50,424 nucleotides of DNA from a bacterium (GTDB lineage: Bacteria; Patescibacteriota; Saccharimonadia; Saccharimonadales; SZUA-47): assembly GCA_030427365.1 (NCBI GenBank), contig JAUHWW010000004.1:1-50424 (forward strand), read 5' to 3'. Under the pieces are notes generated by a model. It worked only from the letters and a program-made list of their open reading frames with translations, searched no databases and was not told the origin of the DNA. Numbering within the stretch: position 1 is the first letter of the stretch; each line of letters opens with the position of its first letter. A program made the translations under genes and the position numbers. Shown here piece after piece: positions 5,336 to 44,593 of this stretch.

Positions 5336-5373
5336 ACAAAATACCTCAGCTTTAGCTGGGGTTTTTTGTTGGT
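5332..5373 (+). terminator. Intrinsic terminator-like hairpin after tRNA-Glu
   Basis: ACCAACAAAA-T-ACCTCAGC loop GCTGGGGT-T-TTTTGTTGGT; the stem extends into the tRNA ACCA end. Confidence 0.75.
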
Positions 5374-5519
5374 ATCCAAGAGCAAGCCAACTGCTTGGCT
5401 TGCGTGGGGTCGAACGGGCGCAAGCCTTGTTTGCCAAGAAGGTGGCAAACGGCGCGCCGGGCTCGTGAGCAAATTGCAAAGCAATTTGACTTGTGAGTTG
5501 ATTCCTCTTGAGATCACCA
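5374..5519 (+). repeat. Structured tRNA-Glu satellite ending in a duplicate of the tRNA 3' end
   Basis: 5500-5519 matches tRNA 5316-5335 at 19/20 nt; hairpins GCAAGCCAA/TTGGCTTGC, GTTTGCCA/TGGCAAAC and AAATTGC/GCAATTT. Confidence 0.85.
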
Positions 5520-5587
5520 AACAATGAGTCGAGCTAGTCATGGTGTTTTTTAGTTGGTTTTACAATAGTACGTGATTTTCTTATACT

Positions 5588-28716: not shown

Positions 28717-28793
28717 GGGCCATTAGCTCAGCTGGTTAGAGCATCGGCCTCTTAAGCCGAGTGTCCTGGGTTCGAGTCCCAGATGGCCCTCCA
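28717..28793 (+). tRNA. tRNA-Lys(CTT)
   Basis: Anticodon arm TCGGC-CTCTTAA-GCCGA; GGTTCGAGTCC; encoded CCA. Confidence 0.97.
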
Positions 28794-28864
28794 ATCAAAT
28801 AAGCTCCCTCGTGGGGCTTTTCTGATTGGAACTATTAACTAGGCTTGAACCCAGGTGTCCTGGG

Positions 28865-28950
28865 TGAAAACTGCCAGTGGAAGTTTGCAAGGAAATCTTC
28901 ACCTGAAAGTTTGCTTTCATGGCAGAAGTTTCGGGGTCGCCAAAGGTGAC
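28865..28950 (+). repeat. Three-hairpin tRNA-associated element, Lys copy (86 nt)
   Basis: Flanked by GTGTCCTGGG (28855-28864) and CGAGTCCCAGACGGCCCT (28951-28968), i.e. a tRNA-Lys 3' duplicate with the T-loop TT replaced. Confidence 0.88.
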
Positions 28951-28973
28951 CGAGTCCCAGACGGCCCTTCTTG

Positions 28974-29006
28974 CAAAAAAGCTCCTTGGAGACAAGGAGC
29001 TTTTTG
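28974..29006. terminator. Bidirectional intrinsic terminator
   Basis: AAAAAGCTCCTTG-GAGA-CAAGGAGCTTTTT. Confidence 0.85.
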
Positions 29007-29021
29007 TAATTTGACGCGAAA

Positions 29022-41497: not shown

Positions 41498-41572
41498 GCG
41501 GGTGTGGTATAACGTTTATTATTCCTGCCTTCCAAGCAGGCGACGCGGGTTAGACTCCCGCCACCCGCACCA
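41498..41572 (+). tRNA. tRNA-Gly(TCC) with non-canonical D/T loops
   Basis: Anticodon arm CCTGC-CTTCCAA-GCAGG; acceptor GCGGGTG/CACCCGC; CCA; T-loop TTAGACT. Confidence 0.9.
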
Positions 41573-41601: not shown

Positions 41602-41626
41602 GCCCTGGTAGCTCAGCGGATTAGAG
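41602..41626 (+). repeat. Exact duplicate of tRNA-Arg(TCT) nt 1-25
   Basis: GCCCTGGTAGCTCAGCGGATTAGAG is identical to 41783-41807. Confidence 0.95.
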
Positions 41627-41713
41627 TGAGGGATGCCTATGGCATGCCGCAAGGAGACTTTCCTCATCAATCTATGATTGATTGAGCGAAATCTCGGGGT
41701 CGCGGAACGTGGC
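41627..41713 (+). repeat. Three-hairpin tRNA-associated element, Arg copy (87 nt)
   Basis: TGA-GGGATGCC/GGCATGCC-GCAAG-GAGACTTTC...GAAATCTC-GGGGTCGC-GGAAC-GTGGC; tRNA sequence GCGGG resumes after it. Confidence 0.85.
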
Positions 41714-41782
41714 GCGGGTTTCCCGCTGCTCGGACCAAACCCATTCACACAATTTAACAACAAATGGTTCCTTAATTGATAC

Positions 41783-41859
41783 GCCCTGGTAGCTCAGCGG
41801 ATTAGAGCAGCGGGCTTCTATCCCGCGTGTCGGGGGTTCGACTCCCTCCCAGGGTACCA
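41783..41859 (+). tRNA. tRNA-Arg(TCT)
   Basis: Anticodon arm GCGGG-CTTCTAT-CCCGC; GGTTCGACTCC; CCA. Confidence 0.96.
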
Positions 41860-41867
41860 ATTTAGAT

Positions 41868-41943
41868 GGCGGGTGTAGTTCAACGGTTAGAACGTCGGGT
41901 TGTGGTTCCGAAGACGGGAGTTCGATTCTCCTCACTCGCCCCA
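41868..41943 (+). tRNA. tRNA-His(GTG)
   Basis: Anticodon arm TCGGG-TTGTGGT-TCCGA; encoded G-1 and C73; CCA. Confidence 0.96.
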
Positions 41944-41946
41944 AAT

Positions 41947-41977
41947 AAAATCAGCTGCAAGGCTGATTTTAATTTTT
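41947..41977 (+). terminator. Terminator after the Gly-Arg-His tRNA cluster
   Basis: AAAATCAGCT-GCA-AGGCTGATTTT-type hairpin followed by T-rich sequence. Confidence 0.7.
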
Positions 41978-42033
41978 CAATGGTTATCCACTTGTTTTCA
42001 CAGAGCTGCTTTGCGATACTAAGCACAAGAATT

Positions 42034-42519
42034 ATGAGTCAAGAAGAAATTGATATTTTCCTACAAGTCGTTGTTGCCGTCTGTATGGGTGGAATCATCG
42101 GCATCGAGCGTGAGTTGTCTAAAAAACCAGCTGGCATTCGGACGCACATGTTTGTCGCAGGAGCAGCAGCACTCGTCATGGGTATCAGCACGCTGCTTAT
42201 CCACGACTTTGCCAATGATTTTGGCTCAGTGCAGTCTGACCCTGTGCGTGTTATAGAGGCGGTTATCGTTGGCATCAGCTTTATCGGCGCAGGCACTGTA
42301 TTAAAGAGCGAGAAGTCCCATAATGTTTACTACCTCACAACGGCGGCGTCTATCCTATTTGCAGCCGCAATCGGCATCACTGTTGGCCTAGAACGCTACT
42401 GGCTTGCACTGTGTCTTACAGGGCTCGTCGTGCTCACAAACTTAGCTGTTGGAAACCTCGAGCTAAAATATCTCGGGAAAAAAGAACACCATACCGATGA
42501 TGTTCACCCGCAGAACTAG
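42034..42519 (+). CDS. MgtC/SapB family protein
   Basis: GIERE, AGIRTH, GISFIGAG and LTTAAS motifs; start at ATG 42034. Confidence 0.93.
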   Translation: MSQEEIDIFLQVVVAVCMGGIIGIERELSKKPAGIRTHMFVAGAAALVMGISTLLIHDFANDFGSVQSDPVRVIEAVIVGISFIGAGTVLKSEKSHNVYYLTTAASILFAAAIGITVGLERYWLALCLTGLVVLTNLAVGNLELKYLGKKEHHTDDVHPQN

Positions 42520-42526
42520 ATAATGC

Positions 42527-43057
42527 TTAGGTGATTATTCTTTCGAGCACAGTTCCGAGTGTGTAGGCAATAAGCGCTGCTGCAACACCGAGTCCAAGAG
42601 TTTCAAGCACAGACTTTGCCTTATCAACTCCTGTTACGACAGCTCTCAAATAGCCGATACCTGCGAATGCCGCGAGCGTTAAGAATATCGAGTATATGAG
42701 TGCATTATCGCCGAGCTGTAATTCAAACATATAATCGGCAATGTAGATGACTAGTGGGACAAACCCAATGACAACAAAGGAAATAAACGTTGCAATTGAA
42801 GCCCCGAGTGGCGACTCTTGTTCTGCGGTATCCTTACTTTTTTTTGCTTCGAGCTGCTGATCGGCTTTTTCGCTAAGATACGCGCCAACCGCCATCGAGA
42901 ACCCGTCAGCGAAAACATTTGCTAACCCCAAAATCAGTATCACTTGACTGCTAAAGTTAGCCCCGGCAGCGCCAGTCACGATCGCGAAGGTCGTCACCGC
43001 ACCATCCATGCCGCCATAAACGAACTCACGCAGGTTGCTCTCAATTCTCCCAGTCAT
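42527..43057 (-). CDS. VIT1/CCC1 family Fe/Mn transporter
   Basis: VYGGMDGAVTTF and GLANVFADGFSMAVGAYLS motifs. Confidence 0.93.
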   Translation of the reverse strand: MTGRIESNLREFVYGGMDGAVTTFAIVTGAAGANFSSQVILILGLANVFADGFSMAVGAYLSEKADQQLEAKKSKDTAEQESPLGASIATFISFVVIGFVPLVIYIADYMFELQLGDNALIYSIFLTLAAFAGIGYLRAVVTGVDKAKSVLETLGLGVAAALIAYTLGTVLERIIT

Positions 43058-43086
43058 ACCTTTTAGTATCGCAGACGATAGACGGC

Positions 43087-43740
43087 TCAGGCAAGTGAGT
43101 TTATGAATATGACGGTAAAGAGTGGCGTAAATAGGTTGTCAGACCCGTATGGTGAGCTGTTCTCAAGGACAGTCGCAACTGCTGGCAACAACACCAGCAT
43201 CGCAAGCATGTTATTTTCAATTGTTTCTTGTCCGCCGATACCCCAGGCAATAGCGATTGATACGTACACTAGAGCAATATAGGCGACAGTGCCTGCGATA
43301 CTTTTTCGGAGGTTTTTCTTGCCAAAAACGTAATAGCTGTTGCTGCCGCCCCAGAACCGTCCTACAACCGCGGCGCCGCCATCAGCAAGCGCCATTAGTA
43401 AGATAGCCAGGGTGAACACCCAGGGCTCACGCGTAAGCAACGCGCAAAAAGCCATAGAAAGGGCAAAGAACAACTCGCCGTAAGTTCGCCGCTTTACCGC
43501 GTAAATCGCGTGAATGAGGCCAGTTGTACGCGAATAAATGAGCACGTTAAATCCGACCAAACTAAGCAGGAATATCACCTCAAGCGGGATGTAGTGCGGC
43601 CAAAATGCCATCCACATGCCCGCCAAAATATGTATAAATTTGCGTGCACGCTCGCCTTTCACAACACCTTTACGCCATAGTGCTTCTGAAATTAGCAAGA
43701 CGAGGCCAACCGGCAACAAGGCAATGAGAAGTTTTAACAC
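43087..43740 (-). CDS. Polyprenol/phytol kinase-like membrane protein (CTP-dependent family)
   Basis: RKFIHI, ADGGAAVVGR, KSIAG and GSDNL motifs. Confidence 0.85.
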   Translation of the reverse strand: MLKLLIALLPVGLVLLISEALWRKGVVKGERARKFIHILAGMWMAFWPHYIPLEVIFLLSLVGFNVLIYSRTTGLIHAIYAVKRRTYGELFFALSMAFCALLTREPWVFTLAILLMALADGGAAVVGRFWGGSNSYYVFGKKNLRKSIAGTVAYIALVYVSIAIAWGIGGQETIENNMLAMLVLLPAVATVLENSSPYGSDNLFTPLFTVIFINSLA

Positions 43741-43802
43741 AATGCATCGATTATAACACTGGTAACACCAGCAGATCTGCGGTATAATCGTCTGAGTAAT
43801 TT

Positions 43803-43827
43803 CGGGGTGTAGCTCAGTTGGCTAGAG
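43803..43827 (+). repeat. Exact duplicate of tRNA-Pro nt 1-25
   Basis: CGGGGTGTAGCTCAGTTGGCTAGAG is identical to 43972-43996; both are preceded by ATTT; TATAAT at 43783. Confidence 0.95.
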
Positions 43828-43914
43828 TGAGAGCCGTCGGTGACGGGTCGCAAGGGAACCCACTCTTGAAAACTTGTTTTTCAAAGATGTGGTGACGGGG
43901 TCGCCGGAGGTGAC
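43828..43914 (+). repeat. Three-hairpin tRNA-associated element, Pro 5' copy (87 nt)
   Basis: TGA-GAGCCGTC/GACGGGTC-GCAAG-...TGAAAA-CTTG-TTTTTCA...-GGGGTCGC-CGGAG-GTGAC; tRNA sequence CGCGGTTTGG resumes at 43915. Confidence 0.88.
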
Positions 43915-43971
43915 CGCGGTTTGGCCCAAACCTGACCGAAATGTCACTAAACTAATTTACAATTTATATTT

Positions 43972-44048
43972 CGGGGTGTAGCTCAGTTGGCTAGAGTGCG
44001 CGGTTTGGGACCGTGAGGTCGGAGGTTCAAGTCCTCTCACCCCGACCA
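43972..44048 (+). tRNA. tRNA-Pro(TGG)
   Basis: Anticodon arm CGCGG-TTTGGGA-CCGTG; GGTTCAAGTCC; CCA. Confidence 0.97.
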
Positions 44049-44119
44049 AATAAAGATCCGTCCGTTTGGACGGTTTTTTATTTGGTTTCTGAGGGATGAG
44101 ATGGGCTTGAACCGTTAGG

Positions 44120-44209
44120 TGAGAAGTGCCATAAGCGCACTTCGCAAGAGAATCTTTCAGCTATGAAACTTGTTTCATGCTTGAAAGTTCTGGGCCCGCA
44201 GAATGTGGG
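44120..44209 (+). repeat. Three-hairpin element, Pro 3' copy a (90 nt)
   Basis: TGA-GAAGTGC/GCACTTC-GCAAG-AGAATCTTTCAG...TTGAAAGTTCT-GGGCCCGC-AGAAT-GTGGG; followed by an exact 21-nt tRNA-Pro 3' end (44210-44230). Confidence 0.88.
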
Positions 44210-44315
44210 CAAGTCCTCTCACCCCGACCAAAGAAAAGAGTCGTCCAAATGGACGGCTTTTTTCTTTGATTAGAGGTAGGATTTGTAGCTCAAACCTCAC
44301 GGAGTGAGTCGGAGG

Positions 44316-44413
44316 TGAGGAGTGCTGCGTCTAGCACTCCGGAAACCCGGAAGCAGATTTTGAACTTGCTTCAAAGTCTTTTGAGGGCGGGGCGGGACTC
44401 GGCTGAATCCGCC
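44316..44413 (+). repeat. Three-hairpin element, Pro 3' copy b (divergent)
   Basis: Preceded by tRNA-like GTGAGTCGGAGG; TGA-GGAGTGCT/AGCACTCC-GGAAA-...TTTGAA-CTTGC-TTCAAA...-GGGGCGGG/TCCGCC. Confidence 0.6.
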
Positions 44414-44435
44414 AGCTGGCAGATCACCGAGATCG

Positions 44436-44521
44436 TGACAAAGTCCGGTGGCATTCTGCAAGGCAATCTTCTTCATCAAACTTACTGGATTGAACGAAGT
44501 TGCGGGGTCGCTGAAAGTGAC
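44436..44521 (+). repeat. Three-hairpin element, Pro 3' copy c (86 nt)
   Basis: TGA...GCAAG-GCAATCTTC...GAAGTTGC-GGGGTCGC-TGAAA-GTGAC, followed by degenerate tRNA-Pro end CAAGTCC...CCCCGACCA (44522-44543). Confidence 0.85.
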
Positions 44522-44545
44522 CAAGTCCAGTATGCCCCGACCAAT

Positions 44546-44575
44546 AAAAAATGACCGTACCCATGGTCATTTTTT
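44546..44575. terminator. Bidirectional terminator
   Basis: AAAAAATGACCGT-ACCC-ATGGTCATTTTTT. Confidence 0.8.
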
Positions 44576-44593
44576 AGTATCGCTATGTGCTAC

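Follow-up and report, generated by a model that had tools for sequence, protein, structure and literature searches.

Genomic islands and prophages that integrate at transfer RNA (tRNA) genes by means of tyrosine integrases cross over in the anticodon loop or the T-loop, and the element carries a copy of the tRNA end. Recombination sites that fold as single strands are represented by the integron attC site, a single bulged hairpin with the R''/R' core sequences RYYYAAC...GTTRRRY, and by the attP(+) hairpin of the CTX phage, which is used by Xer. Small non-coding repeats with terminal hairpins that cause no target duplication are found among the miniature elements derived from IS200/IS605 and the REP/RAYT elements, and the mobile archaeal tRNA introns are short inserts of one family located at D-arm, variable-region and T-loop positions. 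In this study, a stretch of 50,424 nucleotides (nt) from a bacterium of the order Saccharimonadales (contig JAUHWW010000004.1 of assembly GCA_030427365.1, positions 1 to 50,424, forward strand), hereafter called the window, was found to harbor several copies of a structured sequence of about 88 nt, termed the module, each of which is joined to a displaced partial copy of a tRNA gene that stands beside the intact gene. At almost all junctions that could be read on both sides, the module takes the place of exactly two tRNA nucleotides behind a G.

ARAGORN identified seven tRNA genes in the window, of which those for Arg(tct), Pro(tgg) and Lys(ctt) are flanked by extra partial copies. The parts of these loci are given below, with “inner” denoting the side of a module that faces the intact gene and “outer” the opposite side.

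28717..28793, + strand: intact tRNA-Lys(ctt)
28794..28864, + strand: turn region of the Lys unit, with a terminator, an inverted copy of the T-arm CTTGAACCCAGG (z = 3.7), a turn and the inner arm GTGTCCTGGG
28865..28950, + strand: type A module Lys3 (93.4 bits)
28951..29010, + strand: displaced 3′ fragment of tRNA-Lys, starting with CGAGTCCCAGACGGCCC (tRNA positions 56–73, one mismatch, CCA lost), and a terminator
41498..41572, + strand: tRNA-Gly(tcc), behind which tRNA-Arg follows after 9 nt in both same-genus genomes (empty site)
41602..41626, + strand: displaced 5′ fragment of tRNA-Arg(tct), 25/25 identical to positions 1–25
41627..41713, + strand: type A module Arg5, an 87-nt core TGAGGG...GTGGC with three helices (84.8 bits)
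41714..41782, + strand: inner arm of the Arg unit and spacer before the intact gene, with GCGGG and a putative anticodon-stem remnant that has a 3-nt loop
41783..41859, + strand: intact tRNA-Arg(tct)
43803..43827, + strand: displaced 5′ fragment of tRNA-Pro(tgg), 25/25 identical to positions 1–25
43828..43914, + strand: type A module Pro5 (87.9 bits)
43915..43971, + strand: inner arm of Pro5 CGCGGTTTGG, 10/10 identical to tRNA positions 28–37, and spacer, with a promoter-like site before the intact gene
43972..44048, + strand: intact tRNA-Pro(tgg)
44049..44119, + strand: turn region of Pro3a, with a terminator hairpin (44058–44073), the imperfect inverted copy of the tRNA-Pro 3′ part GGGATGAGATGGGCTTGAACC (z = 4.0) and the inner arm AGG
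44120..44209, + strand: type A module Pro3a (73.7 bits), preceded by TTAGG
44210..44230, + strand: displaced 3′ fragment of tRNA-Pro, 21/21 identical to positions 56–76, followed by a second terminator (44242–44255)
44316..44434, + strand: type B module, a longer relative (GTGAG..CGGAAAC..GGGACTCGGCTGA..CACCGAGATCGTGAC)
44435..44521, + strand: type A module Pro3b2 (81 bits), abutting or nested in the end of type B
44522..44575, + strand: older, decayed 3′ fragment of tRNA-Pro CAAGTCCAGTATGCCCCGACCA and a third terminator

In the window copies, the insert core TGA...GTGRC measures 86–90 nt and the tRNA bases resume directly behind it, the missing dinucleotides being CA in Arg, TG in Pro5, and TT in both Pro3a and Lys. 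The type B module at 44316..44434 is placed behind GTCGGAGG, the T-stem 5′ strand of tRNA-Pro, and further type B copies were identified elsewhere in the genome (C8:2015-2087 and C5:20908-21010). Contigs from two other studies (X5 records 17 and 18; X6 records 24 and 25) cover the Arg and Pro arrangement in full, with 0–16 differences; the duplications are thus no assembly artefact, an explanation that the preliminary description of this locus had considered. Within the distal Pro unit (window 44338–44458), X3/X4 contigs, with a depth of about 17–18 as compared with about 6 here, omit 119 nt between type B and type A, indicating that a related organism in the samples has a single module at this place. 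A third kind of insert, about 90 nt long (CGAACGGGCGCAAGCC...CTTGTGAG; 5408–5497), was observed at window 5336–5530 downstream of tRNA-Glu(ttc), where it lies in a T-loop copy and is followed by a tRNA-Glu(ttc) 3′ fragment and a second terminator; the type A model gives no match to it at window 5336–5530.

The genome to which the window belongs (G000; 935 kb, 99% complete) was searched with an nhmmer profile built from five window copies, which detected 17 copies, and with a covariance model built from 15 copies, which detected 19. The covariance model matches 30 of 41 related genomes with 2–22 copies each (including the unpublished genomes G009 and G021), and carriers comprise 22 of 24 genomes of the same family and 7 of 16 from other families of the order. 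In addition, a search with a strict sequence pattern, in which each prokaryotic species was represented by one genome, gave at least 120 stretches, 80 of which were listed. Among these 80, 71 were confirmed by the model, and among the matches listed 60 of the 71 are labelled Saccharibacteria, Saccharimonadales, Saccharimonas or Saccharimonadia, the remainder being unlabelled (nine), Parcubacteria (one) and Burkholderiaceae (one). Nine pattern matches in other phyla, again among the matches listed, were negative with the model, which is about the chance expectation. Since the named carriers among the matches listed are nearly all Saccharibacteria, the window is assigned to this small-genome group. 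The loci labelled Burkholderiaceae (L260, 88.8 bits) and Parcubacteria (L194, 94.2 bits) hold full-scoring modules, and their labels may reflect either mis-binning or a wider range. No description of the motif, or of tRNA-fragment units in Saccharibacteria, was found in the main texts of the literature, supplements aside.

To define the junctions, 142 copies confirmed by the covariance model (18 from the window genome, 42 from relatives and 82 from the pattern loci) were compared with tRNAs called on the same strand at a distance of at most 1.5 kb. The weakest or overlapping matches and locus L029, from an unpublished genome, were left out, and the flanks were taken to include the initial G and the final base of the model. 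Because 82 of the 142 copies were chosen by sequence pattern, these represent one subfamily. A tRNA match was recognized on at least one flank in 115 copies and on neither in 27, and both flanks were readable at the junction in 77. Exactly two nucleotides are replaced in 72 of these 77 copies, the others lacking 1, 3, 9, 36 and 36 nt, and the tRNA base ahead of the insert is G in all 72, a regularity that far exceeds chance. The lost dinucleotide in the 72 copies is TT (45), GT (16), TG (4), CG (4), CA (1), GG (1) or GC (1), and the base behind it is C (55), T (14), G (2) or A (1). The two 36-nt cases resemble a D-loop junction fused to a T-loop junction and look like the product that recombination between both modules of a double-module copy would give; a pseudo-tRNA-Pro with two modules, one at position 26 and one in the T-loop, and with the tRNA middle intact, is present in G022.

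The 77 copies occupy five kinds of tRNA site: the T-loop (57), the 3′ side of the D-stem at position 26 (9), the D-loop (4), the anticodon loop (4) and the variable loop (3). The host sequences derive from 28 tRNA species; in one Leu copy the module is located in the anticodon loop, and in one Val copy in the variable loop. T-loop copies lie downstream of the tRNA in 45 of 57 cases and upstream, with a 5′ fragment, in 12, and all nine D-stem copies lie upstream; the duplicated side of the tRNA is usually the shorter one, and the orientation of the module is always that of the tRNA fragment. The common context is roughly RG-NN-C, hyphens setting off the lost pair, and comes nearest to the T-loop sequence GG-TT-CRA. 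Modules are also found in hairpins other than tRNA, beside an intact copy of the host sequence. In the complete genome G010, an identical 90-nt module is present at CGGG-CT-CGCC within two different modules, with two nucleotides replaced and without duplication of the host, and these identical nested copies are a sign of recent movement. The RNase P RNA gene (C11) contains no module.

The preliminary description had proposed that the element replaces exactly 2 nt after a G without target-site duplication, and this rule is borne out by all four window junctions and by the larger set alike, no duplication being present at the junctions read. Its further statement that only two tRNA positions are used applies to the window alone; junctions gathered from many genomes uphold the 2-nt replacement and dispose of the two-site preference, given the five tRNA sites, the non-tRNA hairpins and the module itself as targets. 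The proposed division into downstream T-loop and upstream D-arm insertions survives as a tendency and fails as a rule because of the 12 upstream T-loop copies. Similarly, a site-specific reaction rather than random slippage is indicated by the precision and recurrence of the junction, whereas the suggestion that it is guided by structure goes beyond the evidence of the sites, which share the sequence context RG-NN-C. A junction of such exactness, recurring at many sites and in 28 tRNA species, requires a precise reaction and suggests a hitherto undescribed route by which DNA can be inserted at essential genes while leaving them intact.

The type A module is a sequence of about 86–90 nt whose consensus opens with GTGAG and closes with GTGAC. 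It was folded by RNAalifold into three helices with compensatory changes in 25 of 31 pairs (15 copies). In an alignment of 123 copies from many genomes, which was fitted to the covariance model and therefore favors the structure, 96.5% of the pairing cells can pair as compared with 72.2% in 500 shuffles, none of which reached the observed value, and with 30–47% when the partners were slid against each other; double-change cells number 781, as against 196 expected. A G.U pair in the last helix is retained in 99 of 116 distinct copies, indicating that one particular strand folds. The segments GUGA, GCAAGG and CGGGG are unpaired and nearly invariant, and a minority of copies contain CGGAAACG instead of CGCAAGG, an alternation that in our reading preserves a GNRA-type loop. 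Searches against Rfam 15 returned, for the window, only the seven tRNAs above the gathering scores and nothing credible over the modules at 43780–44580 with E values up to 10, and, for seven loci with modules outside tRNA contexts, tRNA matches alone. The strand specificity of the fold, together with the G.U pair and the GNRA-type loop, makes it most likely that the structure forms in RNA and that the module serves in cis as a recognition or reaction site of the joining step.

The units, that is, the modules together with their tRNA-derived arms, are built on two plans. A 3′ unit consists of the intact tRNA, a terminator, often an inverted copy, a short turn, about 11 nt of tRNA sequence ending with G53, the module, tRNA positions 56–76 and a second terminator. 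A 5′ unit consists of a promoter region with tRNA positions 1–25, the module, 9–29 nt of the tRNA sequence that follows, an unrelated spacer and the intact tRNA. Inner arms are short and end abruptly (medians 11–12 nt), and outer arms extend to the tRNA end and beyond, so far in tRNA-Phe that 26 nt of upstream sequence are repeated too. Among 66 outer arms of 3′ units, 31 are identical to the tRNA, 10 contain one mismatch and 25 contain 2–12 mismatches, and 21 of 42 outer arms of 5′ units are identical. The inverted copy of the tRNA 3′ part is imperfect; it scores z>=3 in 33 of 63 3′ units as compared with 4 of 63 in a sense control, was detected in one of 22 5′ units, and gave a weaker signal in a looser test of the 110 nt downstream of tRNAs (1/5 in G000 and 0/2 in G034). 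In the RNAfold prediction, the inverted copy pairs with the 3′ fragment in a long hairpin from which the module branches off. An alternative interpretation of the sequence ahead of 3′ modules, as the decayed rest of a tRNA, was rejected since an inverted copy of the tRNA 3′ part explains it better.

Most units measure about 170–250 base pairs (bp), and those with a small open reading frame (ORF) measure 0.6–1 kb; only 10 of the 115 tRNA-linked copies are situated 200 nt or more from the tRNA, the longest gap being 1056 nt. The cargo ORFs encode 243 and 216 amino acids (aa) after tRNA-Glu(ctc), 154–169 aa after tRNA-Trp, and 189 aa in G010, the last with a weak match to the DUF6036 nucleotidyltransferase family (23.4 bits against a cut-off of 23.6); no recombinase domain was detected in the cargo ORFs checked. 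A motif, GCTTATGCTTG(C/G), occurs directly behind tRNA 3′ ends or fragments and ahead of cargo ORFs, at tRNA-Glu(ctc) (G000 C6:20417-), at its 3′ fragment and at a Trp 3′ fragment (C17), and possibly serves the inserted units as a promoter element.

Related genomes provide both empty and filled sites, a comparison that the preliminary description had proposed. The distance from tRNA-Gly to tRNA-Arg is 9 nt in the same-genus genomes G001 and G002 and in the higher-coverage X3/X4 contig, and 210 nt in the window. At the Pro locus, G001 is bare, with a promoter, the tRNA, one terminator and no match to the model; its promoter resembles the one at the outer 5′ fragment of the window and not the one before the intact gene, and the TATAAT region upstream of the fragment at 43803..43827 is similar to this native promoter. 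In G002, the orthologue of the window Lys unit, with the same module start but truncated, is located further out, beyond a different insert of about 190 nt, and its tRNA 3′ fragment is still joined to the old terminator, which indicates that the newer DNA was inserted next to the intact tRNA and displaced the older end to a distal position. In G001, many positions of the intact tRNA-Lys deviate from the sequence found in G000 and G002, whereas the distal fragment has the G000/G002 sequence; being unlike the working tRNA, this fragment is a fossil of an earlier gene and was not kept matched. Several unrelated types of insert occupy the same T-loop place, namely type B, the insert at 5408–5497 and the inserts in G001 and G002. 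Many tRNA fragments, mostly adjoining modules, are present in G000 and in the distant relative G034, and the module-free relative G018 (1.05 Mb) contains no modules and no extra tRNA fragments, its two matches being those of two Thr tRNAs to each other.

In layout, the units resemble tRNA-targeting islands: the tRNA remains intact through a carried copy of its end, the original end is displaced as a direct repeat, additions at one tRNA occur in tandem, and the T-loop is the favorite site. An intact tRNA combined with a displaced identical end, the mark of a tRNA island, was found in 31 of 66 3′ units and 21 of 42 5′ units. The units differ from islands in being 170–250 bp long without an integrase, whereas islands are of kilobase size and contain one; in that the block of identity is broken by the module with two nucleotides missing, whereas it continues across the crossover in islands; and in their use of 5′ ends besides 3′ ends, of at least five positions and of targets other than tRNA. 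As compared with serine-integrase elements, the crossover dinucleotide is lost rather than retained at both junctions, and the recombinase does not follow the distribution of the module. The preliminary contention that the junctions are unlike classical integrase attachment sites is accordingly sustained by the 2-nt gap, the number of positions used and the absence of an integrase gene, and contradicted by the tRNA layout with serial units, which is the classical one. A further counterpart is the archaeal model in which a mobile element disrupts a tRNA gene, based on tRNA-Thr of Caldiarchaeum, where a tRNA fragment lies 1.8 kb upstream of the gene and the insert encodes a recombinase (PMC3293823). 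In that case, too, a 5′ tRNA fragment was left ahead of the intact gene, mobile DNA separating the two (PMC3293823). Its insert, however, measures 1.8 kb and includes a recombinase gene, and the outcome is an intron-containing tRNA, whereas the units described here contain no recombinase gene, their working tRNA has no intron, and their host is a bacterium.

The module shares with attC and CTX sites a non-coding nature, the conservation of structure over sequence, strand-specific folding, precise insertion without duplication and, as in cassette arrays, perhaps one small ORF. In contrast to attC, it forms three helices instead of one imperfect hairpin, no GTTRRRY or RYYYAAC cores were seen, its arrays are located at tRNA genes and not beside an integrase gene with attI, and two target bases are lost. 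Its start GTGA recalls the GT[AG]G of REPs, but neither a Y1 transposase nor TnpB was matched in the genome, the G is the sole invariant base of the target (72/72) and two nucleotides disappear, whereas IS200/IS605 elements use a fixed tetra- or pentanucleotide and lose nothing; the copies are, moreover, highly divergent with compensatory changes, unlike repeats of the IS200/IS605 type. The use of many tRNA positions by one family of short inserts is common to the archaeal tRNA introns, which are situated in working genes and cut out by the splicing endonuclease, whereas the hosts of the module are truncated copies. Group I and group II introns are excluded as a match by the lack of an Rfam intron hit, the size of 88 nt, the two missing nucleotides, the truncated hosts and the lack of matches to PF00078. 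With regard to DDE miniature elements, the ends TGAGAA... and ...GGTGAC do not form an inverted repeat and there is a 2-nt loss without duplication, although DDE transposase families were not searched; the asserted dissimilarity to DDE transposition is thus confirmed at the junctions read, where neither terminal inverted repeats nor target duplications occur. IS110 elements with bridge RNA depend on a DEDD transposase, and PF01548 has no match in the genome.

These observations lead us to favor, tentatively and at somewhat short of an even chance, the reading that the units are a family of very small, non-coding elements that integrate at tRNA genes, the reaction taking place on DNA. Each element would consist of a replacement copy of the shorter tRNA end (a 3′ end with a terminator, or a 5′ end with a promoter) and, at the opposite end, the module of about 88 nt with about 11 nt of tRNA sequence on its inner side. 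Insertion would leave the tRNA whole and now using the end copy of the element, and the original tRNA end would remain outside the element, directly joined to the module, giving the observed junction. Newer units would enter beside the intact tRNA, and older ones would be pushed outward and decay; modules would also land in non-essential targets, other modules included, without duplication. A single crossover in the outer arm of a small circular form could produce this layout, and one located in the inner arm would leave no functional tRNA and presumably be lost. The observations above establish the build of the units, the junction rule and the folded structure, as well as accretion, fossil ends and the contrast of empty with filled sites; the strand and chemistry of the joining step, together with its enzyme, belong to the conjectural part of this scheme.

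Several points weigh against it. The filled and the empty Gly–Arg sites differ in the entire spacer, a gain that may be due to homologous exchange with a relative instead of primary insertion; the Pro promoter is judged orthologous from a short similarity in an inverted neighborhood; the free or circular form is one that we infer; and a structure conserved across genera could equally mean a host function. Known enzymes are also lacking in the genome: no matches were obtained to PF01797 (Y1 transposase) and PF07282 (TnpB), for which control genomes gave matches, to the reverse transcriptase PF00078, to the IS110-type transposase PF01548, or to the splicing endonuclease PF01974 and RtcB PF01139. 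The genome has one tyrosine recombinase (PF00589), on contig C35 without a module, and homologues of its serine recombinase adjoin tRNA 3′ ends, not module sites. We know of no recombinase class that uses five or more different tRNA positions or leaves a 2-nt gap.

The large serine recombinase just mentioned is the only one in the genome (549 aa; C38:582-2231, L317), and its gene runs up to the 3′ end of tRNA-Gln(ctg). As the enzyme of the module it was rejected, since it acts at tRNA 3′ ends and its homologues are sporadic, being present in 22 of 41 genomes, module-free ones included. At 12 of 12 loci with homologues in relatives (L319–L329 among them), the end of the recombinase gene is closely followed by a tRNA gene (Gln, Gly, Trp, Asn, Thr or Glu), and a short NATAGA-like motif stands behind the CCA in six of the 12; these loci are a separate family of tRNA-integrating elements. 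A presence/absence screen of the window genome against the module-free G018 and the module-bearing, distant G034 (0.80 Mb) showed that 67 of 1078 crude ORFs match G034 but not G018. The two most enzyme-like of the 67, a DEAD-box helicase (36 of 41 genomes) and RNase HII (35 of 41), were rejected because they are present in module-free genomes. A GIY-YIG-like gene beside the C7 copy gave a weak match (20.4 bits against a cut-off of 22.6).

Alternatively, the units may be scars of larger mobile elements (phages, plasmids or islands) at tRNA genes whose interior was deleted, the module being an RNA gene or arm close to the element end. Such an origin, which we regard as unlikely, would account for the units with 0.6–1 kb of cargo and small ORFs (one weakly DUF6036-like) and for the unrelated insert types that share one T-loop place, and integrating elements at tRNA genes do exist in these genomes, as seen in the 12 serine recombinase loci. 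However, we saw no complete element with a module and a tRNA fragment as its boundaries among the 115 tRNA-linked copies, the identical nested copies of G010 are bare modules, and the same module occurs at five tRNA positions.

The module might instead be a host or domesticated non-coding RNA placed on tRNA-derived scaffolds that lend a promoter or terminator, with copies kept by selection. The compensatory changes that keep the structure across families of the order, the 2–22 copies maintained in genomes of less than 1.2 Mb, the constant orientation relative to the tRNA fragment, the position after a promoter-bearing fragment in 5′ units and before a terminator in 3′ units, and the antisense tRNA 3′ copy that pairs with the fragment (33/63, as against 4/63 in the control) would all be explained in this way. 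We nevertheless consider it rather doubtful: the exact 2-nt junction at many sites requires a mechanism, not selection, 11 of 41 relatives lack the module, two of the same family among them, same-genus genomes differ locus by locus, the fragments decay, that of G001 does not track its tRNA, and no protein partner follows the module (three candidates across 41 genomes).

Equally doubtful in our estimation is a protein-free mobile element, in which a folded RNA or single-stranded DNA would direct or catalyze the joining after a G with the loss of two bases, using only universal host functions and surviving in essential single-copy tRNA genes through the spare tRNA end that it carries. If true, this would be an insertion chemistry new to transposon, intron and integrase systems.

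Insertion at the RNA level, in which the module RNA would be joined into tRNA transcripts by a reverse-splicing-like or cleavage–ligation reaction, copied to DNA and recombined beside the gene, appears very unlikely. The target sites do coincide with or adjoin unpaired segments of folded RNAs (loops of tRNAs and of hairpins, and the variable region), the module has features of a structured RNA such as the G.U pair and the GNRA-type loop, and archaeal tRNA introns have reportedly spread over many tRNA positions. On the other hand, the genome lacks matches to reverse transcriptase, RtcB and splicing endonuclease, the units carry promoters, terminators and ORFs foreign to a tRNA transcript, the sites at positions 25/26 and 38/39 are partly within stems, and removal of the module cannot restore the tRNA because two nucleotides are missing. 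Finally, enzyme-free template switching during replication at terminator or T-arm palindromes, with direct–inverted–direct triplications and the module as filler, would suit the order of 3′ units (tRNA end, terminator, inverted copy, turn, direct copy) and the loop of the second Pro terminator, which we read as flipped relative to the first, but is hardly credible as a sole cause, since an insert that is constant, has precisely defined ends and leaves two nucleotides missing cannot arise from it, the inverted copy was found in one of 22 5′ units, and G018 has no such triplications.

If the units are integrating elements as favored here, they would constitute a new variant of tRNA-targeting mobile DNA, and there is an appreciable probability that their joining reaction is novel in kind. 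Saccharibacteria have genomes of less than about 1.2 Mb with single-copy tRNA genes, yet contain up to about 20 units, which show how mobile DNA can insert itself at essential genes while the host survives. The junction rule, a G and the loss of 2 nt, is a constraint on any enzyme or ribozyme to be proposed, and the module is an abundant and well-supported structured RNA motif that is absent from Rfam. Empty, filled and stacked sites can serve as markers of strain history in this group, which is rich in uncultured members, and a joining step that proved to be RNA-directed or self-catalyzed would offer a potentially tool-like activity for site-specific insertion.

Among the hosts other than tRNA, a conserved hairpin (..CTAGAGGGGGTGGGCACCGCTAGAG.. 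then ATTACACCCTTCAACCCAC) recurs in several genomes (G000 C1:9922-10090, L001/L035; L046; L058), with a partial copy that contains a module just upstream; it has no Rfam match. The host sequence CTTGGTAGCGGG-TT-CGCCC likewise has a module in a partial copy beside an intact copy (G000 C23:54500-54760, minus strand, L031; L024/L047; end of C36), and the region behind this module (AGGA...GGGGAATAGCGAACC...), which shows conservation in two genera, may represent an RNA that lacks annotation. ARAGORN called 41 tRNAs in the whole of G000, with no tRNA-Asn among them, and tmRNA gave no match above the Rfam cut-off, with weak matches at C5:10772-11282. A repeat of about 50 nt (GAGCTTTAGGGGGTGTGGTGCAGTTTTTGAATTTAGTTCAAAAAC...) lies beside two module units in opposite orientations (G000 C26:18440-18500 and C5:14950-15010).

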